From a virus (taxonomy: Duplodnaviria > Heunggongvirae > Uroviricota > Caudoviricetes): a stretch of DNA of 15,611 bases. The stretch covers positions 1 to 15,611 of the IMG/VR virus record IMGVR_UViG_3300029733_000039; one strand, 5' to 3'. How positions within the stretch are numbered: position 1 is the first letter of the stretch; every line of letters starts with the position of its first letter. The position numbers were made by a program, and so were the translations under genes. Below, one piece after another: positions 1,383 through 15,611 of the stretch. The notes beneath the pieces were generated by a model. The model was not told the origin of the DNA and ran no database searches. It saw only the letters and a list, made by a program, of their open reading frames with translations.

Positions 1383-1510
1383 TTTGTTCTCCACTTTATA
1401 TGCGCTGCACCGCGCTGAATTTTGGTTAAAGAAAACCCTCGCCATCAGGCGATTATTGAGTCAATTATGTTTCCATAAATGCCCCCGCAGGGGCATTTGC
1501 AGTAATGAAA

Positions 1511-2335
1511 TCAGGCGGTGAAAGTACCAATAAAGGTTTCTACTTTGCTGTCTTTAAATTTCTCAACAAGCAGATCACGAAATTCGTTAGCCATTTCTTC
1601 CTGCACTGCTTCCAGCTGAATAATGCGCAGAACCAGTACAGGACGATCGCCAGTGATAATGCTGAGGCGTAATTTAAACGGACGTTCTTTCAGGCCTTCA
1701 AACGGAACGCATTTAAATTTAAATGCCACTGGCATAATATCTTTGGTCTTCGCTTCGACAGACTCCATCAGGGAGCGTTTGCCGCTGAAGTCATTATCTT
1801 CAAAATCAGCGGTCTGGTTCGCTTCAATTGTGATTTTACGGACCGCCGCAGCCGCTTTTGTTGCCTTAATAGCGTCACCATTAGCATCAAAGCCCACAAG
1901 ATAGTCGGCCCAGTCTTCAATCCATTCTGCCAGTGACTTCTGGGAGTTACGCTCGCCGTTAACAGACAACAGAGCAGAGAACGGTGCTGTCTTTTTCAGT
2001 TTGAGTGTGGCGGTGTTATCTGCGTGACCTGGTTCACCAATAGTACCCAGGTTAAGCACACTGACGGCACGCATATTATCGGCATCGATAAAGCAGCGGG
2101 TGCCTTCATCTGCAAGATCTTTAGAATAACGGGTAAAGTCATCGATGCTGGCAGTGGAAAGCGCACCACGGAAACGGAAGCGATTTAAATTAAATTTTTC
2201 CAGATCATGAATGCGGAAATTCTCAGGCAATGCCACAGCATCGGCACCAATCTTACTGATAATTTCATTAACACCCTGAGCAGAAATAAGGGCATGGATT
2301 TGATTAATTGCGGTTGCGTCTAAGTTCTGAGACAT
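1511..2335 (-). CDS. yfdQ: YfdQ-like protein (DUF2303 family), 274 aa
   Basis: Clean 274-aa minus-strand ORF with a GAGGA RBS 7 nt upstream of the ATG at 2335. Length is identical to E. coli K-12 CPS-53 YfdQ and it sits in the YfdP-YfdQ-YfdR order. Function unknown. Confidence 0.6.
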
Positions 2336-2400
2336 AATAAGTCCTCACTATATTAAGATATTCAGTGATGAGATAAATAATCAGTTAATTAAGAACGATA

Positions 2401-2763
2401 TTAATGACCTGCTGCGCGGAGTTTTCCGTCAGGTTCACCGGCAAGAGTCAGTAATTGTCCCTGGTCTTCCTGCAGAATAGTCAGGCGACCACCTCGATTG
2501 ACATACATCGGCGTTTCGGTGGTGTCTTCTTCGGAGATTTTCCCGCGGTTAGTCGGGCGAACATATGAGAGTTTGTGTTTGATTTTCACACGGTTCTCAT
2601 CAAACGGTTCGATGTCCAGATTGACCGAGACTTTACCTTTGTTTTTCGTGTTCATCACACCGGAAGCGACTTCACTGAGAACTGCGCCGAGTTTGGTTTC
2701 AAATACGCCGCCGTCCAGTTCTACGATAAATACCTGCACATCAGTACTGCGTACGCTAGCCAT
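2401..2763 (-). CDS. yfdP: YfdP-like hypothetical protein, 120 aa
   Basis: The ORF track gives 2401..2949; the preferred start is the ATG at 2763..2761 (MASVRSTDVQ...), which has a strong GAGGAG RBS. This gives 120 aa, the length of K-12 YfdP. The upstream 62-codon extension has no RBS and overlaps structured leader sequence. Confidence 0.55.
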   Translation of the reverse strand: MASVRSTDVQVFIVELDGGVFETKLGAVLSEVASGVMNTKNKGKVSVNLDIEPFDENRVKIKHKLSYVRPTNRGKISEEDTTETPMYVNRGGRLTILQEDQGQLLTLAGEPDGKLRAAGH

Positions 2764-2900
2764 TTTGCTGCTCCTCATCATACCGACCCTGCAAGGTCGG
2801 TTGGTTTCTCCACAAAACAGAGAAGAACACCTGCGGTGACAGCCGCCCGGATGGATTGGGTTATGAGCCCGTCGTCCGGTGATGCTCTTCTCTGTTTTGT

Positions 2901-2962
2901 AAAAAGAGCGGTACCAGCCGGAAGCAAGTGTACAAACTGGTACCGCCAAAGCAGTGGCTGTT
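2901..2962 (-). ncRNA. dicF: DicF-like small RNA with intrinsic terminator
   Basis: The minus-strand sequence UUUGGCGGUACCAGUUU matches the DicF core as I recall it (UUUGGCGGUAUCAGUUU) at 16 of 17 positions. It is followed by an 11-bp terminator stem (5' arm 2947..2937, 3' arm 2917..2907, including one G-U pair) with a 19-nt loop and a UCUUUUU tract (2907..2901). It lies in the early-left leader downstream of the repressor gene, as dicF does in Qin. The 5' end is not determinable from sequence. Confidence 0.5.
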
Positions 2963-3439
2963 GTGGTGCCGGTGCTGATCTCCGGCTTGCGGTTATTTCA
3001 GACTCTCACGGGCGTTTGATTGCCCCGCCGAACAGCTCTTTTCCGCAATAGCCGCAATGTCTTTCGCGCATCAGCCTGCGCATTCACCACAACGCTGAGA
3101 GCATTGCCGGTGTCCGAATCGAACGGACCTTTTCCCTGCCCAACCCTCCCATCTGAATGGGACTGTCTGGAATTGAACCAGCACTTATGCCTTGCTCGTC
3201 AATGCTCTCATCGTTGCGTCCTGGTCTCTTCCCAGGCGTCAAACCGAATCGCCACGCTGGTTAGGCGTCTTATCAGCATCATCATTGACTTGCACATTCC
3301 GGCTACCTGGTTTGTTTGCCCGAGCAAGGAGTGGATTGTCCCCTTTAACGTCCCCAGACCGCTAACGACGCATGTGCCATACGCCGTGTTACAACCAAAT
3401 TTTGTTTAATCTTGCCTGTGGCATGTTTCTTTTAGATAC

Positions 3440-3467
3440 ATTATGTATCTCAAGGGTACATTGTCAA
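3440..3467 (-). promoter_or_regulatory. Candidate PL early-left promoter with operator half-site
   Basis: On the minus strand: TTGACA (complement of 3462..3467), a 16-nt spacer, then CATAAT (complement of 3440..3445). A GGGTACA motif shared with the OR operator lies in the spacer. Inference only. Confidence 0.35.
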
Positions 3468-3470
3468 GTA

Positions 3471-3494
3471 TAAAAAAACCTGCCGAAGCAGGTT
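3471..3494 (-). terminator. Rho-independent terminator after the repressor gene
   Basis: Minus-strand hairpin AACCUGC-UUCG-GCAGGUU followed by a U7 tract, 12 nt downstream of the CI stop codon. Confidence 0.6.
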
Positions 3495-3505
3495 ATAAAT
3501 ATTGA

Positions 3506-4180
3506 TTAGGCCTTTATTTTGTATCTTCTTGGTTTTCCTGAGAAAATTACTGTACCAATTATAGAGCAATTACCGTTAATCTTAATGTAAGGCTCAGGCC
3601 AGTTTGGGTTTAATGCTTTGAGATAACGCTGTGTTCCATCTTCTATCAATCGCTTGAAGGTGGTTTCGCCTGTATCGTGCATCAATGCAATAACGTCGTC
3701 ACCGTGGCAGGCAGGGACTTCGGGATCAACAAAAATCATGTCTCCCGGGCGGTACTCATCAATCATTGAATCACCAATCACCCGCAAGATATAAGTCATT
3801 TCGCCACAGGGTACAGGGCAGGGATAAGTTTCTGCTGTGCTCAAATCAACCTCAGAATAGCCAACTTCTTTCCATGCTCCGGCCTGTACCCATGATATGA
3901 CAGGGACTAACGTTATTTGTTTGTTAGTAATTGAAACATCAGGTTTTTTTGTGATGTTTGTTGTCTGGTGTTCTTGATCAAGCCATCCGACAGGCAGGTC
4001 GAAACATTTTTCGATGTGCCGTGCCATGCTGTCACCGATATTTTTAGTAGCACCATCTCCCATAAACCTGCTGGTCTGGGTTGGCTCGCGATCAATCATG
4101 GTGGCAAAGGAAGAATTCCCGCCAACACCATCTCTCAGTTTTCTGGCGTTAGACCGCCGGATGTCATGGACTGTTTTCAT
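3506..4180 (-). CDS. CI-like phage repressor with C-terminal S24 (LexA-type) autopeptidase domain
   Basis: 224-aa ORF divergent from the cro-like gene. The C-terminal half has the S24 Ser-Lys dyad signature (VIGDSM ... TFKRL). The N-terminal part is consistent with a DNA-binding domain. A terminator follows directly. Confidence 0.85.
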   Translation of the reverse strand: MKTVHDIRRSNARKLRDGVGGNSSFATMIDREPTQTSRFMGDGATKNIGDSMARHIEKCFDLPVGWLDQEHQTTNITKKPDVSITNKQITLVPVISWVQAGAWKEVGYSEVDLSTAETYPCPVPCGEMTYILRVIGDSMIDEYRPGDMIFVDPEVPACHGDDVIALMHDTGETTFKRLIEDGTQRYLKALNPNWPEPYIKINGNCSIIGTVIFSGKPRRYKIKA

Positions 4181-4197
4181 AACGAAATTAAAACCTT

Positions 4198-4216
4198 TGT
4201 ACCGATAGGGTACAAG
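4198..4216. promoter_or_regulatory. Operator-like palindrome (OR) in the cI-cro divergent region
   Basis: Inverted repeat TTGTACC-GATAG-GGTACAA sits just upstream of the PR -35. The GGGTACA half-site recurs at the candidate PL near 3451..3460. Confidence 0.5.
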
Positions 4217-4220
4217 TATC

Positions 4221-4248
4221 TTGAAGGTTCATCTCAATCATGTAATAT
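4221..4248 (+). promoter_or_regulatory. Candidate PR promoter
   Basis: TTGAAG (4221..4226), 16-nt spacer, TAATAT (4243..4248). GGAGG RBS at 4256..4260 and cro ATG at 4271. Confidence 0.5.
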
Positions 4249-4270
4249 GTATATCGGAGGTACATATTGT

Positions 4271-4471
4271 ATGAAAGCGTATTGGGACTCTTTAACCAAA
4301 GAACAGCAGGGCGAGTTGGCCGGAAAAGTTGGCTCAACACCAGGCTACTTACGGCTGGTTTTCAATGGTTATAAAAAAGCCAGTTTTGTGCTGGCTAAAA
4401 AACTTGAGCAATGCACGTCAGGTGCAATTACGAAATCTGACTTAAGACCGGATATCTATCCGAAAGATTAA
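4271..4471 (+). CDS. Cro-like small DNA-binding protein, YdaS family, 66 aa
   Basis: ATG at 4271 preceded by GGAGG. The protein ends with a LRPDIYPKD motif reminiscent of YdaS/Cro-like proteins. The track ORF 3968..4471 is a long N-terminal extension through the repressor gene and is rejected. Confidence 0.7.
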   Translation: MKAYWDSLTKEQQGELAGKVGSTPGYLRLVFNGYKKASFVLAKKLEQCTSGAITKSDLRPDIYPKD

Positions 4472-4502
4472 CAGAACACCTTCAATTTTTAACCACAGAA
4501 CG

Positions 4503-5072
4503 ATGAGGCTAACCGTGGGTAAGCATCACTGGAAAGTAGAAAAACAGCCTGAGTGGTACGTGAAAGCTGTCAGAAAAACTATCGCGGCGTTGCCGGGGGG
4601 TTACGCTGAAGCTGCTGAGTGGCTGGATGTAACAGAGAACGCTTTATTCAACCGCCTTCGTGCAGATGGCGATCAGATTTTCCCGCTGGGATGGGCAATG
4701 ATTTTACAGCGCGCGGCTGGCACTCACTACATTGCGGATGCTGTCGCACAGTCTGCTGGTGGGGTGTTTGTATCGCTTCCTGAAATTGAGGAAGTAGAGA
4801 ATGCCGATATAAACCAGCGCCTGCTGGAAGTCATCGAACAGATCGGGAGTTACTCAAAGCAGATTCGTTCGGCAATCGAAGATGGGGTAGTGGAGCCACA
4901 CGAGCAGACAGCAATTAATGATGAGTTGTATCTGTCAATTTCGAAGCTCCAGGAGCATGCAGCACTGGTCTACAAAATCTTTTGCGCTCCAGAAAAGAGT
5001 GACGCCCGCGAGTGTGCAGCTCCGGGCGTCGTGGCGTCGATTGCTTCTGGTTGTGGAGAAACTAACGCATGA
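4503..5072 (+). CDS. YdaT-like / CII-position regulatory protein, 189 aa
   Basis: First gene downstream of cro in the PR operon. Family resemblance to YdaT (structurally CII-like) is from memory. An alternative GTG start at 4515 has a GAGG RBS. The stop overlaps the next ATG (ATGA). Confidence 0.5.
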   Translation: MRLTVGKHHWKVEKQPEWYVKAVRKTIAALPGGYAEAAEWLDVTENALFNRLRADGDQIFPLGWAMILQRAAGTHYIADAVAQSAGGVFVSLPEIEEVENADINQRLLEVIEQIGSYSKQIRSAIEDGVVEPHEQTAINDELYLSISKLQEHAALVYKIFCAPEKSDARECAAPGVVASIASGCGETNA

Positions 5073-6865
5073 ATAGTTTAACGGCAAATAACCGTTTGTC
5101 GCAACAGCTGGTGGTCAGCGTCGCTGAACACCTGTTGTTACGGCATGAATGCAGATTACCAAATCACCTGGCTGTAAGTAACCACAGAGAACTTTACCTG
5201 ACTGTGGGGGGCGAGTTGTGCAGGAACTTAACCGCTGGTTTCGTGACGGAAGAGGGCTTTATGTCCATGTTATTCGTTGGGAGCCAGAAACACAGCGCGT
5301 TATCTATCTTCGCAAAGACTACCCGCATGAGTGCTTTAGTCCTTTGTGGAAATTCAGGCGTGATTTTGTTGAGTGTGAAGGACCACCAGCATATTGATTC
5401 TGCCATTCCGGGACGTTACACTGTTCAGGCACCTTATAAAGCGGGTGCCGGGATTGGCGTCCTGAAATTGTCAACGGCGATGTATGACGCGCCAGCGTCT
5501 TTTTTATCGTCCGCATTTGCTCACATCCAGATAATGGTGGGCTGGGCGGGGGCACCGAAAGGTGCGCCGGTCTCCGTTGACGCCGGTTACGCCAACCCCG
5601 TCCAGTTCACCACCAGTGAAATTGGCGTTTCCGGTGGTGGAAGTTTTTCACTGTCAACGGAGGCTGCCATCATGGCTACGATCCCAGCCCTCACTCAACC
5701 TGAAATCACCATTGACAACGGCCAGGCCGTTACCACTTCTTTGGCTGTTGCCAACTCCTTCTCCAAGCGTCACGACGATGTGCTGAAAAAGATCCGCACT
5801 CTGGATTGTTCCCCTGAGTTTTGTGCCCGCAATTTTGCGGAGACATCGATTTCGGTAAATCAACCGAACGGTGGTACACGCAAGCTCCCTTGCTATCAAA
5901 TCACACGAGACGGTTTTGCGTTTCTTGCTATGGGTTTCACGGGTAAACGTGCTGCCCGGTTCAAAGAGGCATACATCAATGCCTTTAACCAGATGGAGAA
6001 ACGCTGCATTACGGCGTTATCCCTTTTTGACTATCTCCGCTTGTTGCGCCTTGCTGGTGTTCCGGGTTATATTTCTCGCGTTGCTGTAAATCCAGCAACC
6101 GGGTTTAGCAGCCCGGAACACATCACAGCGCACAACCGCGCCTGCGGTTTTTTTGTGTGCAATGCCCGGTCACATCTGAATTATGGTGGCCTGGGTAGGG
6201 GAGCCGAAAGGCTCGCCGGGTTCTGTGATGACCGGTCTGCTAACCCTGCTCAGGTTACCACCAGTTGTTTAGCAGCAGCTTGTGGTGATAAGTCAAAACT
6301 CATCACAGGGGCTGTCGTTATGACTACCATCCCAACCCTCGCTCAACCTGAACTTTGTGTTATTGATGGCAAAGTCGTTACTTCTTCGCTGGCTGTTGCC
6401 GATTATTTCCATAAACCCCACAAAGACGTACTGGCAAAAATTTCTCGTCTGGATTGTTCCGTCGAATTTACCGAGCGAAATTTCTCGCTCAGCAAATACA
6501 CCGATGTAACAGGGCGTAAGTTGCCGTGTTATCACATCACTAAAAATGGCTTCGCGTTCCTAGCTATGAGTTTTACAGGCAAGCGAGCGGCTCGTTTTAA
6601 AGAGGTGTACATAAACGCCTTTGACCAGATGGAAAATCAACTTTCAAATCCTTCTAGGTTGAATGACGTCGCACATAACGCCAGCGTTCTCTATTCCTAC
6701 ATTTCATCAATTCATCAGGTCTGGCTGCAGCAGCTTTATCCCATGTTGGCAAAAGCCGAATCCCCGCTGGCTGTAAGTCTGTATGACCGCATCAACGACG
6801 CGGCGCTACTGGCCAGTCTCATAAATTTGTCGCTGAATCCTTCAGAGGTAAGGGGGCGCAAATGA
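5069..6865 (+). CDS. 598-codon ORF with two tandem Rha (phage regulatory protein / antirepressor-like) domains; gene model uncertain
   Basis: Single open frame 5069..6865. Two Rha-type domains (TTSLAVA ... LPCY.ITRDGFAFLAM.FTGKRAARFKE.YINAF.QME) begin at in-frame ATGs 5672 and 6320, each with its own RBS (GGAGG at 5659..5663; AGGGG at 6306..6310). The first 200 codons have no recognisable domain. Internal nucleotide-level elements (see findings) suggest the real products may be shorter, for example 5672..6865 or 6320..6865. Confidence 0.5.
   Translation: MNSLTANNRLSQQLVVSVAEHLLLRHECRLPNHLAVSNHRELYLTVGGELCRNLTAGFVTEEGFMSMLFVGSQKHSALSIFAKTTRMSALVLCGNSGVILLSVKDHQHIDSAIPGRYTVQAPYKAGAGIGVLKLSTAMYDAPASFLSSAFAHIQIMVGWAGAPKGAPVSVDAGYANPVQFTTSEIGVSGGGSFSLSTEAAIMATIPALTQPEITIDNGQAVTTSLAVANSFSKRHDDVLKKIRTLDCSPEFCARNFAETSISVNQPNGGTRKLPCYQITRDGFAFLAMGFTGKRAARFKEAYINAFNQMEKRCITALSLFDYLRLLRLAGVPGYISRVAVNPATGFSSPEHITAHNRACGFFVCNARSHLNYGGLGRGAERLAGFCDDRSANPAQVTTSCLAAACGDKSKLITGAVVMTTIPTLAQPELCVIDGKVVTSSLAVADYFHKPHKDVLAKISRLDCSVEFTERNFSLSKYTDVTGRKLPCYHITKNGFAFLAMSFTGKRAARFKEVYINAFDQMENQLSNPSRLNDVAHNASVLYSYISSIHQVWLQQLYPMLAKAESPLAVSLYDRINDAALLASLINLSLNPSEVRGRK
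5486..5615 (+). repeat. Copy 1 of a conserved structured module (terminator-like hairpin plus multi-stem element) upstream of Rha domain 1
   Basis: Hairpin GACGC-GCCA-GCGTC plus T6 (5486..5505). Then outer stem GGTGG (5536..5540) / CCACC (5610..5614), a 10-bp stem 5542..5551 / 5596..5605, a GAAA-loop hairpin 5552..5565, and a CCGG/CCGG hairpin with 12-nt loop 5567..5586. Confidence 0.6.
6134..6263 (+). repeat. Copy 2 of the same structured module, upstream of Rha domain 2
   Basis: Hairpin AACCGC-GCCT-GCGGTT plus T-run (6134..6154). Outer stem GGTGG (6185..6189) / CCACC (6258..6262), stem 6191..6200 / 6244..6253, GAAA-loop hairpin 6201..6214, CCGG/CCGG hairpin 6216..6235. Several base pairs differ from copy 1 by compensatory changes. 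Copy 2 is 1 nt shorter, so the 5' part is read in a different frame from copy 1. Confidence 0.6.
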
Positions 6866-7086
6866 TCCGGAATATTTTCAAACGGTTTACCAATCATACT
6901 TTCCGTTGTCCTCGTCCGGGTCAGTGGTACACCACGCCTGCAGGGCATGTTCTACGTGTTAGCCTGGTTGACCGTGAATGTCAGAAGGTGGTTTGTGAAC
7001 CGCTGGGCCGTAATTACCGCGTCAGTATGCCGCTTATAGCCTTTTGCTCCGGAAAAATGTTTAAGCGTCTGGGAGGTGTGGCGTGA
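6862..7086 (+). CDS. Hypothetical small protein, 74 aa
   Basis: ATG overlaps the stop of the Rha ORF (ATGA). Cys-containing (possible small metal-binding protein); no recognisable family. Confidence 0.45.
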   Translation: MIRNIFKRFTNHTFRCPRPGQWYTTPAGHVLRVSLVDRECQKVVCEPLGRNYRVSMPLIAFCSGKMFKRLGGVA

Positions 7087-7382
7087 ACTGTTTTCAGTTT
7101 GTGTGCGGATGTGCTTTCGATAACCCGATTCAGCGCCTGATTATGTTGCGTGTTTTGATGTCGGGTTCTTCAGACGGTGAAGGCGAGAGAGTTATTGATC
7201 ATCAGGTGCTTGCTGATTTCTGCTGTTGTTCTAAGCAAGCGATATTCAGGGAAACCCTGGCACTGGAAAGAGCTGGTTATCTTCATATCCGAAAAATTGC
7301 AACGCTTACTATTGATGCAAAAGCCAGACTACAACCTGCGCGTGGCTACACAATTCTCATGCTGCGGAAGGAGGTTGTATGA
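7083..7382 (+). CDS. Hypothetical small protein, 99 aa, possible helix-turn-helix
   Basis: GTG start overlapping the upstream stop (GTGA). Its stop overlaps the O-like ATG (ATGA). Weak HTH-like segment (QAIFRETLALERAGYLHIRK). Confidence 0.45.
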   Translation: MNCFQFVCGCAFDNPIQRLIMLRVLMSGSSDGEGERVIDHQVLADFCCCSKQAIFRETLALERAGYLHIRKIATLTIDAKARLQPARGYTILMLRKEVV

Positions 7383-8386
7383 GCCGTTACGCCCCCACAC
7401 CGGAAGTTATGGCTATTGGTCAAATTAATATTTCCGGCAATGTTACACCTGCGACCTGGTGGAAATATATTCGACTACCCAGTGGGCGTCCGGATGCGAC
7501 GGCTATCGCTCTGCTTTCAGAGATCGTTTACTGGTACCGCCCGACAGAGGTCAGGGATGAGCACACCGGAGCGTTGCTGGGATATCGCAAGCGTTTTCAG
7601 GGCGACAAACTGCAAAGAAGCTACCAGGCGTTTGCTGAGCAGTTTGGTTTCGGGAAAAGGGAAACCGCAGATGCGCTGAAGCGTCTGCGCGATGCAGGGT
7701 TTATTACTCTGGATTTACGCACGGTGGAAATGCTCGATGGGGTGAAATGCAGCAATATTTTGTTTGTCGGGATCAACCCACAGGCAATTGCGGCCATCAC
7801 CACACCTTCTTCTGTTTCGCCAGAAAGTAACAGCAATAATGCAATCAGCGATACAGCTATTACGTTAAAACGGAACACCCCCCGACGTCATAACGGAACA
7901 GGGGATACGCCGAATGTTGATACAAATACAGAGATTACTACAGAGATTACTACAGAGATTACTACAGAGATTACAACGGAGACTAAAAACACTATTGGCG
8001 CATCCGCTGACGCGTCTGCACCAGCGCGTTCTGCCAGACAGGAATATTCACCGGAATTTGAACAGGCCTGGCAGGAATATCCCAAACGTGCTGGTGGTAA
8101 TTCAAAATCCGCCGCTTTTAAAGCCTGGAAAGCCCGAATCAGGGAAGGTGTGACACCCGAAACCATGCTCGACGGTGTGAAACGCTATGCCGCCTGGGTG
8201 CGTGTCTCTGGAAATACCGGTACCCAGTTCGTGAAGCAGGCGTCGACGTTCTTTGGTCCGGATCGTCATTTCGAAGAATCCTGGGAAGTTCCTGCGGTAT
8301 CTGCAGTCAGACGCGAGGACCCGTACTTCAAATCCAGTTACGACAACGTGGACTACAGCCAGATCCCGGCAGGATTCAGGGGGTGA
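7379..8386 (+). CDS. Replication initiator (lambda O-like / replisome organizer) with internal iteron-encoded TEIT repeats
   Basis: 335-aa ORF in the O position of the PR operon. The central linker TEITTEITTEITTEITTE is encoded by tandem 12-bp repeats, as with the iteron-bearing origin inside lambda O. Synteny corresponds to CPS-53 yfdO, which is a fragment in K-12. Confidence 0.7.
   Translation: MSRYAPTPEVMAIGQINISGNVTPATWWKYIRLPSGRPDATAIALLSEIVYWYRPTEVRDEHTGALLGYRKRFQGDKLQRSYQAFAEQFGFGKRETADALKRLRDAGFITLDLRTVEMLDGVKCSNILFVGINPQAIAAITTPSSVSPESNSNNAISDTAITLKRNTPRRHNGTGDTPNVDTNTEITTEITTEITTEITTETKNTIGASADASAPARSARQEYSPEFEQAWQEYPKRAGGNSKSAAFKAWKARIREGVTPETMLDGVKRYAAWVRVSGNTGTQFVKQASTFFGPDRHFEESWEVPAVSAVRREDPYFKSSYDNVDYSQIPAGFRG
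7928..7975 (+). repeat. Four tandem 12-bp direct repeats (ACAGAGATTACT), candidate origin iterons
   Basis: Perfect or near-perfect 12-bp repeats at 7928, 7940, 7952 and 7964, with a degenerate fifth. They lie inside the O-like gene. Confidence 0.6.
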
Positions 8387-8388
8387 TC

Positions 8389-8877
8389 ATGAGTCTGTTA
8401 AATGACGTTCAGAAATTCATTGAAGCCCATCCGGGGTGTACTTCCGGAGACATTGCGGATGCTTTTACAGGTTACTCACGGCAGCGCGTTCTGCAGTCAG
8501 CAAGCAAGTTACGTCAGAGTGGGCGTGTGGCTCACCGTTGTGAAGGAGATACACGCAGACATTTCCCGCGCCTGACTGAGAGAGCGCAGGAACCGGAACC
8601 ACAACCAGTTCGTGAAACCAGACCTGTGCGCAATTTCTATGTCGGCACTAACGACCCGCGGGTGATTTTGTGCCTGACCCGCCAGGCTGAAGAACTGGAG
8701 TCCAGGGGCTTATACCGTCGTGCTGCAACGGTGTGGATGGCGGCATTCCGTGAAAGCCACTCCCAGCCAGAACGAAACAATTTTCTGGCACGTCGTGAGC
8801 GGTGCTTACGGAAAAGCAGCAAGCGCGCTGCATCGGGTGAAGAGTGGTATCTGTCAGGGAATTTCGTGGGGGCTTAA
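8389..8877 (+). CDS. YfdN-like phage protein, about 162 aa
   Basis: The track ORF starts at GTG 8383; the preferred start is ATG 8389, which has an AGGGGG RBS. The start region overlaps the O-like stop. Its TAA overlaps the next ATG (TAATG). Function unknown; the C-terminal region is Arg-rich. Confidence 0.55.
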   Translation: MSLLNDVQKFIEAHPGCTSGDIADAFTGYSRQRVLQSASKLRQSGRVAHRCEGDTRRHFPRLTERAQEPEPQPVRETRPVRNFYVGTNDPRVILCLTRQAEELESRGLYRRAATVWMAAFRESHSQPERNNFLARRERCLRKSSKRAASGEEWYLSGNFVGA

Positions 8878-9530
8878 TGAGTAATAAATATTGCCAGGCG
8901 CTGGTGGAACTGCGGAACAAACCAGCCCATGAACTGAAGGAAGCGGGCGATCAGTGGCGCACGCCGGACAACATTTTCTGGGGAATTAACACTCTGTTTG
9001 GCCCGTTTGTTCTGGATCTGTTTACTGACGGTGATAACGCCAAATGTGCTGCGTATTACACGGCGGAAGACAACGCGTTGGCGCATGACTGGTCAGAACG
9101 CCTTGCGGAGCTTAAAGGTGCTGCCTTTGGTAATCCCCCATACAGCCGCGCCAGTCAGCATGAGGGGCAATACATCACCGGCATGCGTTACATCATGAAG
9201 CATGCCAGTGCCATGCGTGATAAAGGCGGGCGCTATGTTTTCCTGATCAAAGCTGCCACCAGCGAAGTGTGGTGGCCGGAAGATGCAGATCATATTGCTT
9301 TTATTCGCGGGCGTATTGGTTTTGAACTGCCTGCCTGGTTTATCCCGAAAGACGAAAAGCAGGTGCCAACAGGTGCTTTCTTCGCTGGTGCTATTGCTGT
9401 TTTCGACAAGACCTGGAAGGGAGCGGCAATCAGCTACATCGGGCGCGATGAACTTGAGGCATGTGGTGAGGCATTTCTGGCGCAGGTTCGCCAGCAGGCG
9501 GAAAAACTGGTCAGGGAGATGGCGGCATGA
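8877..9530 (+). CDS. Phage N6-adenine DNA methyltransferase (Dam-like, YfdM-type)
   Basis: Contains the catalytic motif GNPPYS (NPPY). Start ATG 8877 is coupled to the upstream stop. The track ORF 8844 is an N-terminal over-extension. Confidence 0.8.
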   Translation: MSNKYCQALVELRNKPAHELKEAGDQWRTPDNIFWGINTLFGPFVLDLFTDGDNAKCAAYYTAEDNALAHDWSERLAELKGAAFGNPPYSRASQHEGQYITGMRYIMKHASAMRDKGGRYVFLIKAATSEVWWPEDADHIAFIRGRIGFELPAWFIPKDEKQVPTGAFFAGAIAVFDKTWKGAAISYIGRDELEACGEAFLAQVRQQAEKLVREMAA

Positions 9531-9853
9531 CGACATTAACTCAATGCCAGCAGCAGGTGCTGGATATGCTGATTTCTTATCAGAAAGAACGTGGCTTCCC
9601 GCCAACCAATCAGGAGGTGGCAACCATGCTGGGATACCGTTCGGTGAATGCAGCGGTGGAGCATCTTCGCGCACTGGAGAAAAAAGGTGTCATCACGATA
9701 AAGCGTGGCGTGGCCCGGGGTATCACTCTTCATACCGCGGTGAAGGACGACGACAGCGAGGCGGTCGGGATTATCCGCGCCCTGCTTGCCGGTGAGGCAA
9801 ACGCCAGGCTGCGTGCAGCCCACTGGTTACATGAGAGGGGCCTGAAAGTATGA
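9527..9853 (+). CDS. LexA N-terminal DNA-binding-domain homolog lacking the S24 cleavage domain, 108 aa
   Basis: The N-terminal 70 aa aligns by eye with the E. coli LexA winged-HTH domain (MTTLTQCQQQVLDML...GFPPTNQEVATMLGYRSVNAAVEHLRALEKKGVI versus MKALTARQQEVFDLI...[34 protein letters not shown]). There is no Ser-Lys protease domain. ATGA overlaps on both sides. Confidence 0.7.
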   Translation: MTTLTQCQQQVLDMLISYQKERGFPPTNQEVATMLGYRSVNAAVEHLRALEKKGVITIKRGVARGITLHTAVKDDDSEAVGIIRALLAGEANARLRAAHWLHERGLKV

Positions 9854-10245
9854 AGCTAATACTGCCTTTTCCGCCCAGCGTGAACACGTACTGGCGACAC
9901 CCCAACAAAGGGGCGTTTGCTGGTAAGAGCCTGATAAGCGCGGCGGGGCGAAAATTCCAGAGCGCGGCGTGTGCAGCAATAGTTGAGCAGTTACGTCGTC
10001 TGCCGAAACCAACGTCGGCACCTGCTTCAGTGGAGATCGTGTTGTTTCCTCCGGATAACCGGATCCGCGATCTGGACAACTATAACAAGGCGCTGTTTGA
10101 CGCCCTGACCCACGCGGGTGTGTGGGAAGACGACAGCCAGGTGAAAAGAATGCTGGTGGAGTGGGGACCGGTTATCCCGGAAGGGAAGGTCGAGATCACT
10201 ATCAGTAAGTACGAAAAAGCGAGTTGCAAATTAGCAACTCGGTAA
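9850..10245 (+). CDS. rusA: RusA-family Holliday junction resolvase
   Basis: 131-aa protein with the RusA core (RIRDLDNYNKALFDALTHAGVWEDDSQV, matching the conserved acidic residues). Last gene of the coupled operon. Confidence 0.85.
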   Translation: MKLILPFPPSVNTYWRHPNKGAFAGKSLISAAGRKFQSAACAAIVEQLRRLPKPTSAPASVEIVLFPPDNRIRDLDNYNKALFDALTHAGVWEDDSQVKRMLVEWGPVIPEGKVEITISKYEKASCKLATR

Positions 10246-10290
10246 CGGAATTGAGCAACACCCTAAATTTGGGTATTACCTCGTTAAAGA

Positions 10291-10310
10291 TACTGTATTT
10301 ATGAACAGTG
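10291..10310. promoter_or_regulatory. LexA box (SOS operator) upstream of the KilA-N / DUF968 / Q gene block
   Basis: TACTGTATTTATGAACAGTG fits the consensus TACTG-(TA)5-CAGTA, with CTG and CAG at canonical spacing. It lies in the 160-bp intergenic region after rusA. A candidate promoter is TTGAGC (10252..10257), 17-nt spacer, TATTAC (10275..10280). Confidence 0.6.
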
Positions 10311-10407
10311 TATCCTTGATAACTATTAAAAATCGCAGTAAGTTCATCCTGCATCAACGAAAAGGGAGTGCAGTCCCGCTCGTGGATAAAAATTTGTGGA
10401 GAAACCA

Positions 10408-11223
10408 ATGAATCAGTTGCTTGTAATTGATGGCGTTTCTGTGCGCCAGTACTTCGAATCTAACTACTGTCTTAACGACCTTCAGAAAGCTGCTCTTCTT
10501 GCCGCTGGTGAGAATCGCTCCTCCCGTTCGCTGGAAGTTCACGAGTTTATGCGTCGTCCTGAAACGAAGGCTCTTGTGGAATTATTGGAAGAAGAAACTA
10601 CGGGAGATTCCCGTAGTATTCCTGTCATCACCATTCAGGGGCGCAATGGTGGGACGTATGTCTGTAAAGAGCTGGTCTATGCATATGCAATGTGGATCAG
10701 CCCGGCATTCAGCTTAAAAGTGATACGTACTTTTGATGCGCTTCATAATTCATCACCAGAAGAAACCACATCCGACAAAATTAAATCCGGGGTCATTCTG
10801 CTTGAATCAGCAGCAAAGACTCTAAATCTGTCAAACTCCTCGAAACTTGGTGCATACCAGAAATTATCAAAGGTAGCTGGTCTTCCTGAACTTATGCCGA
10901 TCTATGCCATTGATGCACCTGCTGATGCGCCAGATGGTTCAAGCCGCCCTACGCTGTCGCTGAGTGCACTGCTGAAGCAGTATGGTATCCGCCTGACGGC
11001 TAATCAGGCATATCACCAGATGGCGAAGCTGGGGATCGTTGAACAACGCGAACGATACAGCCGTACCGCGATTAACAACATCAAAAAATTCTGGTCGCTG
11101 ACAGCGAAAGGCTGCATGTTCGGCAAGAACATCACCAGTCCTGCAAATCCGCGCGAGACGCAGCCGCATTTCTTCGAATCCCGATTCCCTGAGCTGTTAA
11201 AGCTGCTCGATACCGTTCATTGA
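10408..11223 (+). CDS. KilA-N domain protein (antirepressor-like / DNA-binding)
   Basis: N-terminal KilA-N-like region (VCKELVYAYAMWISPAFSLKVIRTFD). Preferred start is ATG 10408, with a GGAG RBS 7 nt upstream. The track start 10396 is less likely. Confidence 0.65.
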   Translation: MNQLLVIDGVSVRQYFESNYCLNDLQKAALLAAGENRSSRSLEVHEFMRRPETKALVELLEEETTGDSRSIPVITIQGRNGGTYVCKELVYAYAMWISPAFSLKVIRTFDALHNSSPEETTSDKIKSGVILLESAAKTLNLSNSSKLGAYQKLSKVAGLPELMPIYAIDAPADAPDGSSRPTLSLSALLKQYGIRLTANQAYHQMAKLGIVEQRERYSRTAINNIKKFWSLTAKGCMFGKNITSPANPRETQPHFFESRFPELLKLLDTVH

Positions 11224-11224
11224 G

Positions 11225-12220
11225 GTGACCGTGAGAGCACTACTGACCCCTGAAATCGCCCCGCGTATGGGGATCGTATTGTTCAGGCCAGGTTCAGAGC
11301 TGATGCCCCTGTTTATGCAGGGGCGTGTCCTGCTGGAGCCTGAGCCGGAACGTTATTCATCTTTTGCCAGTGGTGCCGTTCCGGCATCATCACAACCGCT
11401 GGCGGATGATCCTGCCGTTCGGGCCGTGTTCCGCCATGAGGCGGTGATCCGTCGTGCTGGTGGCGTGGAATGCCTTGAGAGCTGGTTACTTCGTGAAAAG
11501 GGCTGTCAGTGGCCTCATTCCGACTGGCACAGCGAGAACATGACCACAATGCGGCACGCGCCAGGCGCAATCCGTCTGTGCTGGCACTGTGACAATCTTC
11601 TCCGTGACCAGTTCACGGAACGGCTGGAAGCAATGGCAACGGATAACTGTGCCCGCTGGGTGTTGTCTGTTGTGCGCCGTGATCTTGGTTTTGATGACAG
11701 TCACGTTGTGACAATGCCGGAACTGTGCTGGTGGCTGGTTCGTAATGACCTGGCGGATGCTTTACCGGAAAGTGCAGCCCGTAAGGCCCTGAGATTACCG
11801 AAGCCTGTTTTGCCGTCTGTCACCCGGGAGAGTGACCTTGTACCTTCGGTTACTGCCACCAGTATTATCCGGGATAAAGCGAAAAAGGTGCTGGCGCTGA
11901 AAGTGGATCCGGAGTCGCCGGAGTCTTTTATGTTACGCCCCAAACGTCGTCGCTGGGTTAATGAAAAGTACACTCGCTGGGTTAAGACGCAGCCGTGTGC
12001 ATGTTGTGGAAAGCCAGCTGATGATCCGCATCATCTGATTGGTCACGGCCAGGGTGGTATGGGGACAAAAGCGCATGATCTCTTTGTGTTGCCTTTGTGC
12101 AGAAAACACCATGACGAACTGCATGTGGATACCGTGGCATTTGAAGAGAAGTATGGTTCCCAACTGGAGCTGATATTTCGTTTTATCGATCGCGCACTGG
12201 CGATTGGTGTGCTGTCCTGA
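11225..12220 (+). CDS. DUF968-family phage protein (YdfU-like) with C-terminal Cys/His cluster
   Basis: 331-aa ORF with GTG start. The C-terminus (CACCGKPADDPHHLIGHG ... CRKHHDELH) looks like an HNH / zinc-binding motif. Family assignment is from memory. Confidence 0.6.
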   Translation: MTVRALLTPEIAPRMGIVLFRPGSELMPLFMQGRVLLEPEPERYSSFASGAVPASSQPLADDPAVRAVFRHEAVIRRAGGVECLESWLLREKGCQWPHSDWHSENMTTMRHAPGAIRLCWHCDNLLRDQFTERLEAMATDNCARWVLSVVRRDLGFDDSHVVTMPELCWWLVRNDLADALPESAARKALRLPKPVLPSVTRESDLVPSVTATSIIRDKAKKVLALKVDPESPESFMLRPKRRRWVNEKYTRWVKTQPCACCGKPADDPHHLIGHGQGGMGTKAHDLFVLPLCRKHHDELHVDTVAFEEKYGSQLELIFRFIDRALAIGVLS

Positions 12221-12237
12221 TTTTGTGGAGAAAGTTG

Positions 12238-12630
12238 ATGCGTGATATTCAGATGGTTCTTGAACGCTGGGGGGCATGGGCGGCAAGTGGTAACACCGGG
12301 GTGGACTATTCTCCGATAGCTGCTGGATTTAAAGGCCTTTTACCATCCACCGCTAAACCTCGCCCGGCCTGCAGCGATGATGACGGCCTTATCATCGAAA
12401 ACTGCCTTACGCGCCTGAAGAAGAAAAAACCGGACGAGTATTCGCTGCTGGTAGCTCATTATCTGCTGCGCATATCAAAAAGGCAGATTGCCAGAACAAG
12501 AAAGAAGAGCGAAAAGGCAATACGAATTGAGATGCAGATTGCTGAAGGATTTATTGACGGATGTCTGTCGATGCTGGGTGTAAGGCTGGAGATGGACGAC
12601 TGGCTGCCCAAAAAAGTAAAAAATGATTAG
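12238..12630 (+). CDS. Late-gene antiterminator Q (phage 21/82-type, QuuD-like)
   Basis: The N-terminus MRDIQMVLERWGAWAA... matches the characteristic start of Q antiterminators of this type as recalled. ATG 12238 has a GGAG RBS. The track TTG start at 12223 is less likely. A terminator follows. Confidence 0.75.
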   Translation: MRDIQMVLERWGAWAASGNTGVDYSPIAAGFKGLLPSTAKPRPACSDDDGLIIENCLTRLKKKKPDEYSLLVAHYLLRISKRQIARTRKKSEKAIRIEMQIAEGFIDGCLSMLGVRLEMDDWLPKKVKND

Positions 12631-12690
12631 CGCGGTCCGCAAAAAGTATGTCAGTATGTTAAGAGTGGTTACTACGCCACACAACTTAAA

Positions 12691-12712
12691 CCCGCCGCCT
12701 GGCGGGTTTTTT
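12691..12712 (+). terminator. tR'-like intrinsic terminator downstream of Q
   Basis: CCCGCC-GCCT-GGCGGG followed by T6, about 60 nt after the Q stop, as expected for a late-promoter / tR' arrangement. The late promoter itself could not be pinned down. Confidence 0.7.
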
Positions 12713-12831
12713 ATGACTGAAATCGCATCAGTACAGTAAACGTGCTGGTGGTGAATACCTGTCTTTCAGCTTGCTGGCTTTTTAGACAAGAGTTATTGGT
12801 ATGTCACGTTAACCGGAAAAGGGAAAAAGAC

Positions 12832-13029
12832 ATGCTAAAACAGCAGGATATGACAGAAACCGCCAGAGTGGTGTTTAATGAATTAAGCGTCACCTACCCG
12901 GCGACAGTCGGGGAGATTGCGCAGAATACTTACCTTTCACGCGAACGCTGCCAGTTAATACTGACCCAGCTGGTTATGGCGGGTCTGGCAGACTATCAGT
13001 TCGGTTGTTACAGACGCCTTCCGCAGTGA
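12832..13029 (+). CDS. Small hypothetical protein, 65 aa, possible winged-helix regulator; cargo gene in the stx-equivalent position
   Basis: ATG 12832 follows a purine-rich stretch (AAGGGAAAAAGAC). The protein has an HTH-like segment (TVGEIAQNTYLSRERCQLILTQLVMAGL). Its stop lies inside a terminator hairpin. The track start 12742 is rejected as over-extended. Confidence 0.4.
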   Translation: MLKQQDMTETARVVFNELSVTYPATVGEIAQNTYLSRERCQLILTQLVMAGLADYQFGCYRRLPQ

Positions 13030-13040
13030 AGGCTTTTTTA
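13016..13040 (+). terminator. Intrinsic terminator at the end of the small cargo ORF
   Basis: GCCTTC-CGCAGT-GAAGGC followed by TTTTTT. Confidence 0.5.
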
Positions 13041-13358
13041 TTTGTGGTAAATGGGCGGCTGGTGGGTGTGGTGGTTGTTGCTTCCCCGTTGCTGAAAAAG
13101 AAAGCATCAGGCGATTAGCAGGGTATCAGTTACCCGTTGAAATTTTTAAATACCTCACAATTCAGGCGGTTGACTGTTGTCTGGTTTGCGGGGAGTTTGT
13201 TAAAAGAAACTGGCATGGTGAATCCCCCTGTGCGGAGGGGCAATCAGCAACTGGTGTTTTGTCACCGACCCTTATCCTTTCTGTGCGGGTTCAGGTGCTG
13301 ATACTGAACTCACCGGGAGGCACCCGGCACCATGCAATGGCACATAGCGCCACTCTCC

Positions 13359-13385
13359 AGCCCCTCTCCGGAGGGGCTTTCTTAT
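13359..13385 (+). terminator. Plus-strand intrinsic terminator in the non-coding cargo region
   Basis: AGCCCCTC-TCCG-GAGGGGCT followed by TTCTTAT. Confidence 0.5.
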
Positions 13386-13389
13386 GGAC

Positions 13390-13418
13390 AAAAAAAGCCC
13401 GCGCTGGGAGACGCGGGC
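13390..13418 (-). terminator. Minus-strand intrinsic terminator, convergent with the previous one
   Basis: On the minus strand: GCCCGCG-TCTCCCAG-CGCGGGC followed by U7. Confidence 0.5.
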
Positions 13419-13612
13419 GGCAAGGAATAAACAACAAAACGTGAAGTAATATTTCAGCTGGCGAATAATATCCGACAGTAATCACTCTGCGCAATAGCGC
13501 GGCCTTTTTCGTATTGCGGGCTGTAGTCTTCCTCCTGCCATTGTCCTGTAACTTCCGGACTTCAGCCCGTTCCCTCATCTGACTCACAACATTATCCCGA
13601 CCGGGAGGATTC

Positions 13613-15595
13613 ATGGCATTTAAACACTATGACGTGGTCAGGGCGGCGTCGCCGTCAGACCTTGCGGAGCGACTGACTCAAAAACTGAAGGAGGGGTGGC
13701 AGCCATTTGGCAGTCCGGTGGCCATCACGCCCTATACCCTGATGCAGGCCATTGCGGCGGAAGGTGATGTCACCACACCGGTGGTGGTGCAACCGTCGGG
13801 TGATGGTGGCGCTGTTATCAGCACCACCAGCGAACCGGAATATTACTTTGTCATTGCGCTGGCCGGGCAGTCCAACTCGATGTCTTTTGGCGAGGGGCTG
13901 CCGCTGCCGGATACGTATGATCGTCCTGACCCGCGTATTAAGCAACTGGCGCGTCGCAGCACGGTGACACCGGGCGGTGCGGCCTGTGCATATAACGACA
14001 TTATTCCTGCAGACCATTGTCTGCATGATGTGCAGGACGTGAGTAATCTGAATCACCCGAAAGCAGACCTCAATAAAGGGCAGTATGGCTGTGTGGGGCA
14101 TGCCCTGCATGTGGCCAAAAAACTGCTGCCGTTTATGCCTGCCCGTGCGGGGATCCTTCTTGTCCCGTGTGGACGTGGCGATTCGGGATTTACTGCGGGA
14201 GCAGAGGGCGCGTTTAATGAGGCGTCGGGTGCGACAGCGGGCTCTTCCCTGTGGGGGGGGGATAAACCGTTGTATCGTGACCTGGTCAGCAGAACGCGTG
14301 CAGCCCTGAAGAAAAATCCGAAAAACGTGCTGTTGTCGGTGATCTGGATGCAGGGGGAAAAAGATGTCAGTTCGGGGAGACATGCAGAGCACAATGCACT
14401 TTTTCTTGCCATGGTAAATAAATACCGTGCAGACCTGGCAGATATTGCAGACCAGTGTATTGGCGGGACAACGTCCGGCGTCCCGTGGATTTGCGGTGAC
14501 ACCACGTACGACTGGAAGGCGAAGTATGCAGTGCAGTATGAGGCGGTTTACGGAGGCTATAAAGGCAAGGCGGCGCAGAATATTCACTTTGTGCCGTTGA
14601 TGACGGATGAGCATGGTGCGAATGTGCCGACAAACGAGCCGTCAGAAGATCCGGACATTATCACGGCGGGATACTATGGTGCCGCGTCACGCAGTAATGG
14701 TAACTGGACGACAGCCGATCGTAAAACGCACTTCAGCTCCTGGGCGCGAAGAGGCATTGTTTCAGATCGGCTGGCAGGAGAGATACTGGTGCGAGCCGGG
14801 CGTTTGCTGCCGTTCCTGAGCGGGCAGTCTGCACCGCTGGCGACCACGCCAGCCTCCACGGGGGATGCACAGTCTGGCTCTGCGGGTCCGACGCAACAGC
14901 AGGGTGCAGGTACTTCTGCAGGCGGTCATACTGAAGCCGTAACAAGAATGGTGGCCGGATATGATGCGAACAGTGGCAGTGGTGTATGGACAGAGCAGCA
15001 GTGGAATGCGTCCGGTGGTAAAGGCACTGTGACGGATGACAGTGGCAGGAAGGCGCTGCGACTGGAAAAACAGCCGGGTAAACTGACCTCCTGGAAGATG
15101 TTCCGTACTGTTGCGGTGGAGGAGGCAAAAAATCTTCTCAGTAAGGGAGGTGAAATTGCCGTGCGGTTTAAGATCCCGGAGGGTGTCGAACTGGTTAACG
15201 GTCAGTTTGTCTTTGGTCTGTACTGGCCGGTGTCGCAGTGGGCGTCAGGCGCGACAGCAAACAGCATGCTGGCGTCCTTCTTCCTTCAGACGGATGCATC
15301 AAATCTGAATCTGATGTACCACAAGGGGGAGTCGAATGCGCAACTGGGCACATTTGGGGCATTTGACCATAACTGGCATACGGTTGTTTTCCGCTTTGCG
15401 GGAAATAACAGCGAAAAAGTGGTGCCGGTGATTGATGATGCAGAGCAGTCTGCGTTTGACCTGGTGATGTGGACAAATGATGGCTTTACAGCAGATACGC
15501 TGACGCTGACAGATATCACGGGGGCAAAAGCGACGTATCCGGTACTGCTTGATACGGTCACAGTCAAAGTTAACGAAAACCGGGAATCAGCATAA
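13613..15595 (+). CDS. nanS: Prophage sialate O-acetylesterase (NanS-p-like: DUF1737 N-terminal domain plus SASA/SGNH esterase domain)
   Basis: 660-aa ORF with a GGAGG RBS. The N-terminus MAFKHYDVV... and the GQSN active-site motif (ALAGQSNSM) are typical of the nanS-p genes found downstream of stx / Q in lambdoid prophages. The C-terminal roughly 200 aa is Gly/Thr/Ser-rich and looks like a carbohydrate-binding region. Confidence 0.75.
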   Translation: MAFKHYDVVRAASPSDLAERLTQKLKEGWQPFGSPVAITPYTLMQAIAAEGDVTTPVVVQPSGDGGAVISTTSEPEYYFVIALAGQSNSMSFGEGLPLPDTYDRPDPRIKQLARRSTVTPGGAACAYNDIIPADHCLHDVQDVSNLNHPKADLNKGQYGCVGHALHVAKKLLPFMPARAGILLVPCGRGDSGFTAGAEGAFNEASGATAGSSLWGGDKPLYRDLVSRTRAALKKNPKNVLLSVIWMQGEKDVSSGRHAEHNALFLAMVNKYRADLADIADQCIGGTTSGVPWICGDTTYDWKAKYAVQYEAVYGGYKGKAAQNIHFVPLMTDEHGANVPTNEPSEDPDIITAGYYGAASRSNGNWTTADRKTHFSSWARRGIVSDRLAGEILVRAGRLLPFLSGQSAPLATTPASTGDAQSGSAGPTQQQGAGTSAGGHTEAVTRMVAGYDANSGSGVWTEQQWNASGGKGTVTDDSGRKALRLEKQPGKLTSWKMFRTVAVEEAKNLLSKGGEIAVRFKIPEGVELVNGQFVFGLYWPVSQWASGATANSMLASFFLQTDASNLNLMYHKGESNAQLGTFGAFDHNWHTVVFRFAGNNSEKVVPVIDDAEQSAFDLVMWTNDGFTADTLTLTDITGAKATYPVLLDTVTVKVNENRESA

Positions 15596-15611
15596 CCGGC
15601 AAAAAAAACCG

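Follow-up and report, generated by a model that had tools for sequence, protein, structure and literature searches.

A toxin-less moron site of a Shiga toxin phage-like prophage that very probably holds two convergent genes for Hfq-dependent small RNAs

Pairs of convergent small RNA (sRNA) genes have been described at the moron insertion site 3′ of the late promoter PR′ in the Escherichia coli Sakai prophages Sp3, 4, 5, 9, 10, 11, 15, and 17 (Tree et al., 2014). Of the prophage-borne sRNA STnc100, eleven copies are present in strain EDL933, most of which are transcribed and one of which was confirmed by northern blot; a copy situated 75 nt downstream of stx2B overlaps the Hfq-binding sRNA EcOnc27/sRNA103. 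STnc100 was also found to be related to PasD1 and PasD2 of enteropathogenic E. coli (EPEC), where PasD2 and PasA are located on either side of a sialate esterase gene (Zhu, Shabalina and Storz, bioRxiv 2026). In this study, the interval between the gene of the antiterminator Q and a nanS-p-type esterase gene was analyzed in a 15,611-nt stretch of viral DNA (IMG/VR record IMGVR_UViG_3300029733_000039, positions 1 to 15,611; referred to as the window), which is a portion of a lambdoid, Shiga toxin (Stx) phage-like prophage. It is very probable that this interval is a moron site that carries no toxin genes and instead holds a convergent pair of Hfq-dependent sRNA genes, namely STnc100 on the late-gene strand and an EcOnc08/21/42-type sRNA on the opposite strand. 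The transcription starts of the pair, its expression in the host, its targets, and its effect on the phage we infer. A moron (cargo) site with regulatory RNA genes between Q and nanS-p had already been proposed in an earlier sequence-only reading of the same stretch, and this proposal is borne out, with all features listed there being found where they had been placed.

The plus-strand member of the pair was identified by an Rfam covariance-model scan of the window, in which the STnc100 match spans model positions 1-206 of 206 (Table 1); the corresponding RNA is predicted to fold with -74.1 kcal/mol (z -3.2). The roughly 570 bp behind the small open reading frame (ORF) upstream had been taken for empty sequence bracketed by two terminators. 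Instead, this stretch contains STnc100 as its main content as well as a putative 24-codon DUF3927 remnant, and the two terminators abut, 4 nt apart, each closing its own RNA gene, with the plus-strand one being the previously unrecognized 3′ hairpin of STnc100. Terminator-like hairpins as such are only mildly above chance (5 found vs 2.1 +/- 1.4 in shuffles); the sequence around the terminators is far beyond chance, as the STnc100 match has an E-value of 3e-32. A start of STnc100 at 13213 and a promoter of its own are proposed on the basis of an alignment to EPEC PasD2, the published 5′ end of which, the G of GCATGG, was derived from RNA-seq coverage. By this homology STnc100 most likely has its own promoter, and its RNA would extend from about 13213 to about 13386, which corresponds to roughly 175 nt. 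The UGUUAAAA block at the putative promoter is conserved in the Rfam consensus. PasD itself was considered as the identity of the plus-strand RNA and rejected, since the PasD-specific 3′ segment (seed UGUGAG and own terminator) is absent from the window by alignment; the presence of the PasD 5′ core without the PasD 3′ seed and terminator identifies the window gene as STnc100 proper, in its Sakai Sp4 allele.

Some further observations concern STnc100. Its first internal hairpin (13225-13241) and its terminator hairpin (13361-13377) are direct repeats with 88% identity (CCCCUGUGCGGAGGGGC and CCCCUCUCCGGAGGGGC). In some viral contigs (L028 1180-2295, L037 1139-2282, and L088 1576-2274), two to four copies of STnc100 follow one another in tandem upstream of nanS-p. 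The Prokaryotic Genome Annotation Pipeline (PGAP) puts pseudogene fragments on top of STnc100.

The evidence for the minus-strand member comes from two studies of nearly identical DNA. Sakai Sp4 aligns almost base for base with positions 13146..13700 of the window, except for a short variable block within STnc100, and the DNA of the whole minus-strand unit is essentially identical to that of EcOnc08/21/42, the seed and the terminator being the same and the unit lying in the same place with respect to STnc100 and the esterase gene; the sole difference within the unit is one loop base, which is an A in the window and a T in Sakai and EPEC. At this Sp4 locus, the Hfq peaks EcOnc08 and EcOnc21 were obtained by crosslinking and analysis of cDNA (Hfq-CRAC; Tree et al., 2014, Table S2), and the northern probe used for EcOnc08/21/42 in the same study (AATAATATCCGACAGTAATCACTCTGCGCAATAGC) matches 35 nt of the window exactly (13464..13498). 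Published Sakai coordinates (Tree et al., 2014; Sy, 2020) are shifted relative to NC_002695.2 by approximately +8 at Sp3 and by +142 at Sp5, which is why they were not taken at face value. For Sp4 we worked with an offset of 0 to +8, as no other puts the published probe onto the published peaks, and with it the EcOnc08 peak corresponds to about 13392..13464 and the EcOnc21 peak to about 13470..13555.

In EPEC, the published 3′ end of the sRNA candidate E2348C_1409.E2348C_1408.IGR, found by a ligation- and sequencing-based RNA interaction method (RIL-seq), equals the minus strand of the window at 13441..13390 (Pearl Mizrahi et al., 2021, Fig. S5), and the authors named EcOnc08/21/42 as the homologues in enterohemorrhagic E. 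coli (EHEC; Pearl Mizrahi et al., 2021). The intergenic locus in the EPEC prophage PP6 is 95% identical to the window over 13285..13650, and the EPEC chimeras correspond to 13388..13410. The reported chimera partners include the 5′ untranslated regions (5′UTRs) of cfa (767) and dppA (197) as well as emrA and tir (Pearl Mizrahi et al., 2021); their common motif GGCAAGG is complementary to the CCUUGCC located just 5′ of the terminator, and seed-target duplexes calculated on the published snippets have energies of -13 to -21 kcal/mol. An RNA of the minus strand with its end at the U7 terminator, as proposed previously, is thus documented for near-identical DNA, by Hfq-CRAC peaks and a northern blot in Sakai and by RIL-seq in EPEC.

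Comparison of 17 variants of the minus-strand unit revealed that the promoter hexamers, the CUUGC seed core, the hairpin, and the U-run are kept, while the stem sequence is wholly replaced. For this comparison the variants were folded one by one, and column-wise counting of base pairs was dropped, as a divergent clade pairs one column out of register. Of the 5426 complete E. coli genomes, 992 carry the unit, i.e., about one in five, and it is annotated in none of them. A scan of one genome per species with the seed-terminator 18-mer TTATTCCTTGCYRMCCGC gave 90 matches, all of which were chance by BLAST against the window, the pattern being too short for a collection of 596 Gb. In the contigs L049 and L051, EcOnc08-type variants on the minus strand upstream of nanS-p have a duplicated seed (UUCCUUGCUUCCUUGCC). 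Esr41 (RF02676), considered for the minus-strand RNA owing to its reported nearness to PasD, gave no match at the gathering score or at E <= 10.

Taken together, these data suggest the following arrangement. STnc100 would be transcribed on the late-gene strand from its own extended -10 promoter, starting near 13213 and ending at the terminator 13359..13388, and would likewise act as an Hfq-bound trans regulator, with poorly defined targets. The minus-strand sRNA would abut STnc100, end at the hairpin 13418..13397 followed by the U7 run, and bind Hfq via its terminator and U-tail, as in the EPEC homologue; by the same analogy its seed would most likely pair with mRNAs of host and virulence genes that contain GGCAAGG in their 5′ regions, namely cfa, dppA, tir, and emrA. 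Upstream of both RNA genes, a conserved 65-aa winged-helix gene with its own putative terminator would be followed by a decayed DUF3927 gene.

Several points weigh against this interpretation. The Sakai peaks were mapped on the assumption that the coordinates of the genome versions differ by a small offset, and since Rfam has no model for the minus-strand RNA, it was assigned to its family by DNA identity. A simple consensus promoter scan missed the putative STnc100 promoter. Moreover, reviews give the target of EcOnc42 as unknown, and no phenotype has been published for STnc100 or EcOnc08/21/42. Finally, the candidate lengths of the minus-strand RNA differ, with about 68 nt predicted for the window, 182 nt estimated from coverage in EPEC (Pearl Mizrahi et al., 2021), and about 271 nt seen in the Sakai northern blot, the probe of which lies upstream of the proposed short-form start (Tree et al., 2014).

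Table 1. Coordinates of the features discussed, given as positions of the window.
Feature	Position	Strand	Details
Q antiterminator ORF	12235..12630		PF06530, E 3e-52
Terminator-like hairpin (tR′ of the sequence-only reading)	12691..12713	+	60 nt past Q stop; -16.3 kcal/mol, z -4.3
65-aa gene, stand-alone predicted winged-helix protein	12832..13029	+	phrog_331, E 2.8e-37
Terminator-like hairpin + T6	13016..13039 (hairpin 13016..13033)	+	-8.9 kcal/mol, z -2.2; overlaps stop of 65-aa gene
Putative DUF3927 small membrane-protein gene remnant, 24 C-terminal codons	13044..13118	+	translation VNGRLVGVVVVASPLLKKKASGD
Putative STnc100 promoter	13177..13206	+	TTGTCT, 18 nt, extended -10 TGtTAAAAG at 13198..13206
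STnc100 sRNA gene (RF02076)	13184..13389	+	143.2 bits vs gathering score 47, E 3e-32
STnc100 intrinsic terminator	13359..13388 (hairpin 13359..13378)	+	tail UUUCUUAU; -19.6 kcal/mol, z -3.9
EcOnc08/21/42-type, putatively Hfq-binding sRNA, 3′ unit	13390..13459	-	A/U-rich 5′ part, seed, terminator stem, U7
Minus-strand terminator	stem 13418..13397, U7 13396..13390	-	hairpin + U-run
Seed UUCCUUGCCG	13427..13418	-	single-stranded, just 5′ of terminator
Sigma-70-like promoter for ~68-nt form	13465..13494	-	-35 TTGCGC 13494..13489, 18 nt, -10 TATTAT 13470..13465
Long-form upstream extension of minus transcript, candidate	13460..13584	-	includes Hfq peak EcOnc21
nanS-p-type SASA esterase gene, 660 aa	13613..15595	+	Pfam DUF1737, SASA, DUF6645; downstream border of the locus

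The differing lengths raise the question of where the minus-strand RNA starts. The hexamers TTGCGC and TATTAT are invariant in 17 of 17 variants (15 of them aligned), in which the RNA body and stem have diverged or been replaced. The sRNA AsxR is preceded by the same -35 box with 18-nt spacing, its Rfam model begins 6 nt past its -10 box, and AgvB shows the same promoter geometry; the primary 5′ ends of AsxR and AgvB were mapped by RNA ligase-mediated rapid cDNA end amplification (Tree et al., 2014). By analogy, the window RNA would start near 13458. The RNA of about 70 nt from this position, with TATTAT as its -10 box, that had been proposed before is therefore backed by the conserved promoter, by the small size of the segment exchanged between prophage alleles (13390..13486), and by one of the two Hfq peaks; given the longer species in homologues, it is at best one form. 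The 3′ end of the minus-strand RNA is firm, its 5′ end is not. A plus-strand hairpin at 13487-13510 (CUGCGC AAUA GCGCGG), with U5 behind it, overlaps the minus-strand -35 box and is also conserved in the AsxR/AgvB loci; it could be a weak plus-strand terminator or merely part of the promoter region.

The longer species lend some weight to the view that the minus-strand transcript acts mainly in cis. A long form starting at or within the 5′ end of nanS-p would be antisense to the ribosome-binding site and leader of this gene and would dampen its translation or collide with late transcription, with the trans-acting seed being secondary. A 271-nt species would begin near 13660 and a 182-nt form near 13572, and the EcOnc21 Hfq peak likewise lies upstream of the short-form start. 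There is also a GATAAT -10-like box at 13596..13591; however, it belongs to the one weak promoter-like site in this region (ATGCCA-17-GATAAT, 13619..13591, minus strand), which is not above chance. In addition, the segment swapped between prophage alleles comprises only about 97 nt (13390..13486) and brings its own conserved -10 box, and both the RIL-seq chimeras and the target motif indicate a 3′ seed acting in trans. A mainly cis-acting transcript is therefore possible but rather doubtful, and the evidence for short and long forms taken together leaves room for both a short trans-acting RNA and a long RNA antisense to the nanS-p leader.

A further question is whether the locus is cargo under Q control. 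The sequence-only reading had proposed that the winged-helix protein and the RNAs are expressed by Q antitermination from PR′ upon prophage induction. The late strand indeed carries the small ORF and STnc100, both downstream of a terminator-like hairpin that follows Q, and Stx phages have Q-dependent stx2AB on this strand. In contrast, EHEC and EPEC cultures contain relatives of both RNAs in abundance without induction, the minus-strand RNA is antisense to the late transcript, and PasD has a 5′ end of its own, published on the basis of RNA-seq coverage, in keeping with the own promoter that STnc100 most likely has. Control of the RNAs or of the small regulator by Q thus lacks support, and we consider this explanation improbable.

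The hairpin at 12691..12713, previously named tR′, was compared with the PR′ leader of Sakai Sp5 (L181). Positions 12656..12712 are 77% identical to the start of this leader (L181:938..993), and the Q 3′ end together with the hairpin (12551-12712) is 77-81% identical to L181 803-993, the start of StxS-L. The PR′ start (L181:946) and the mapped 3′ end (L181:1203) were placed via the published RNase E site GU/AUU at +173. With this start, the Sp5 homologue of the window hairpin is located at +24..+50 and is read through, while the mapped tR′ of Sp5 is the next terminator, at +258. As the Sp5 counterpart is a promoter-proximal hairpin that is passed, the window hairpin may likewise not be the functional tR′; and since this passage in Sp5 occurs without Q, the small ORF could even be made in lysogens. 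No homology to StxS, the 74-nt processed 3′ part ending at the mapped tR′, was found, the match being confined to the 3′ end of Q and approximately the first 50 nt of the Sp5 leader. The terminator that comes next on the plus strand of the window is the one directly behind the 65-aa ORF (13016..13039). Tentatively, the winged-helix gene might therefore be placed by analogy on a constitutive PR′ leader transcript rather than behind tR′, which we regard as unlikely. If true, the late promoter would give rise to the winged-helix protein in lysogens in the absence of Q, the terminator of the 65-aa ORF would be the real tR′, and the locus would be a coding counterpart of StxS.

The back-to-back hairpins could, alternatively, be a mere bidirectional insulator of transcription, with the short RNAs as functionless by-products. 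The terminators abut at 13388/13390, the terminator scan is only mildly enriched, and the lack of a published phenotype for the RNAs would fit as well. This is contradicted by the fact that the seed and the promoter hexamers persist where terminator stems have been swapped wholesale, that homologues of the RNAs bind Hfq and give seed-matched chimeras, and that AsxR and AgvB, which occupy the same slot elsewhere, have demonstrated functions; the probability of a pure insulator is accordingly small. Hardly worth considering is a coding function of the interval by the 107-aa minus-strand ORF 13614..13291, the plus-strand ORFs 13137..13301 and 13259..13444, or a Trp-rich mini-ORF (13051..13095): these frames exist, and PGAP annotates minus-strand pseudogene fragments in this interval as well as, at the EPEC PP4 locus, an ORF of 399 nt, but none of them matches Pfam or NCBIfam, the 107-aa ORF contains the minus-strand terminator, PGAP flags an internal stop in its fragment, and the mini-ORF is out of frame with a DUF3927-like frame. 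The 107-aa ORF was also compared with the iraM product found in this slot elsewhere and rejected as a relative, as no similarity was found. A convergent pair of Hfq-dependent sRNA genes thus remains the preferred interpretation of the interval.

The DUF3927-like frame just mentioned runs over 13044..13118 and encodes VNGRLVGVVVVASPLLKKKASGD, which aligns to positions 32-50 of 53 of PF13064, i.e., to its C-terminal helix (E 0.003, 17.9 bits against a cut-off of 25). A homologous 75-nt ORF of identical length is named DUF3927 family protein by PGAP in E. coli AR_0013, and intact 52-aa DUF3927 genes are located immediately upstream of PasD in EPEC. The Trp-rich mini-ORF pointed out earlier is present as letters; judged by its sequence it is an out-of-frame reading of the DUF3927 remnant and needs no separate explanation.

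Next to the RNA genes, the 65-aa ORF upstream of them was analyzed. It is a conserved gene with a confidently predicted winged-helix fold, annotated as WP_016232130.1 in the closest genome and with 332 detectable homologues, forms of 63-65 aa being present in E. coli, Shigella, Salmonella, Klebsiella, Citrobacter, and Buttiauxella. The winged-helix assignment made before is backed by the predicted structure: an AlphaFold2 model built from 25 sequences (predicted local distance difference test 86) has the topology H-H-H-strand-strand (H4-18, H26-33, H37-49, E53-56, E59-62), i.e., a three-helix bundle followed by a beta-hairpin wing, and is superposed by Foldseek on IclR/MarR/PefI winged-helix domains with TM values of 0.7-0.8. 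All Pfam scores are below their cut-offs (TrmB 15.9 vs 25.6, HTH_Crp_2 13.6 vs 27, and DprA_WH 13.5 vs 22.9 bits), NCBIfam gave no match, and a sequence search found no solved structure; some homologues are labeled "TrmB family" or "DprA-like winged helix" by their sources. The predicted three-helix and beta-hairpin fold resembles that of stand-alone winged-helix regulators of the PefI/PapI type, with PefI being of similar size, and of IclR/MarR domains, from all of which the 65-aa protein differs by having no family membership at the sequence level. The hairpin 13016..13039 moves with the ORF as a module, homology to the Stx phages L007 and L008 extending to 13069. In the 73-aa E. coli protein P0110, a DUF3927 C-terminus is naturally fused to the first 54 residues of the winged-helix protein, which implies a deletion between the two adjacent genes in some strains.

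Elsewhere in the window, isrK and C4 antisense RNA (Rfam) are each present twice, at 5429-5617 and 6080-6265, as part of a diverged tandem repeat of about 648 nt. The repeat lies inside a 598-aa ORF (5069..6865), at the place of which the closest genome has only a 1146-nt gene of the Rha family, and it looks like a P1/Gifsy-type c4/ant immunity cassette in two different copies. A tRNA search of the whole 15,611-nt window found no tRNA genes.

The closest relatives of the window are chromosomal prophages of E. coli SW070917 and JNEC-KY204, with 99.9% identity across 12600..13650, and phage PhiR5_1, with 97.8%. In SW070917 the genes are ordered RusA, KilA-N, DUF968, Q, a 198-nt hypothetical gene, the SASA esterase, and the holin and lysis genes, with the nanS-p-type gene being labeled "SASA family carbohydrate esterase" there. 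That Stx phages hold tRNA genes and stxAB at this position, as stated in the sequence-only reading, is confirmed by the Stx2a phage Stx2_EH2201 (L008), which has the order Q, the same small ORF, a methylase gene, three tRNAs, stx2AB, STnc100, and nanS-p. Its homology to the window stops at 13069 and restarts at 13155, the methylase gene, the tRNAs, and stx2AB being inserted exactly there. The same Q and small ORF together with this break point indicate that the window represents the toxin-less state of the same site.

The published arrangement was checked on 80 viral loci encoding a nanS-p relative. Nearly all of these loci have STnc100 upstream of nanS-p, in some cases as tandem arrays, and the minus-strand slot abutting it proved exchangeable, holding an EcOnc08-type RNA in 25 loci, an AsxR/AgvB-type RNA in 23, and neither in 32. 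All sRNA-bearing slots have the same -35 box and poly-U boundary. The slot is filled by a homologue of iraM, which encodes an anti-adaptor that stabilizes RpoS (NF007393, E 2e-47), in Stx2_EH2201 (8062-8385, minus strand) and in E. coli AR_0013 (L089, 1927-2262, minus strand). The region between STnc100 and nanS-p thus appears as an exchangeable cassette with an EcOnc08-type RNA, AsxR, AgvB, or an iraM homologue, depending on the prophage. As all essentials of the locus are already described in the literature and in Rfam, the use of these results lies mainly in annotation, the minus-strand unit being unannotated in about one in five complete E. coli genomes. They may help studies of how prophages retune the Hfq networks of their hosts, and open no new question on their own.

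Compared with the described systems, STnc100 of the window agrees with the family in its context, a prophage late region downstream of Q or the moron and upstream of the esterase gene. With the EHEC copies (EcOnc27/sRNA103) it shares the position and the conserved 5′ two-thirds, to which the GCAUGGUGAAUCC start and the CACCGGGAGGCACCCGG hairpin belong; it differs from EcOnc27 in its 3′ third and terminator, which are those of the Sp4-type allele (CAUAGCGCCACUCUCCAGCCCCUCUCCGGAGGGGC), and in having no stx operon upstream. With EPEC PasD1/PasD2 (EcOnc13 in EHEC) it has the STnc100-like 5′ core, the promoter region, and the synteny with Q, DUF3927, and the esterase gene in common. AsxR (RF02703) and AgvB (RF02702) take the same slot as the minus-strand RNA of the window, on the same strand and convergent on the STnc100 terminator, and they share with it the -35 box TTGCGC with the 18-nt spacer, a short A/U-rich body, a hairpin, and a poly-U run; they bind Hfq as well. 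Membership of the window RNA in this family was rejected, as it gave no match to RF02703 or RF02702 even at E <= 10, which places it outside the family, and as its body and terminator are different. It lacks the conserved 3′ region of about 42 nt that defines the anti-sRNA group, and the EPEC partners of its type are mRNA 5′UTRs and not core sRNAs as for the anti-sRNAs. On the strength of its letters, the minus-strand RNA of the window is thus an alternative allele in the cassette position of AsxR and AgvB.

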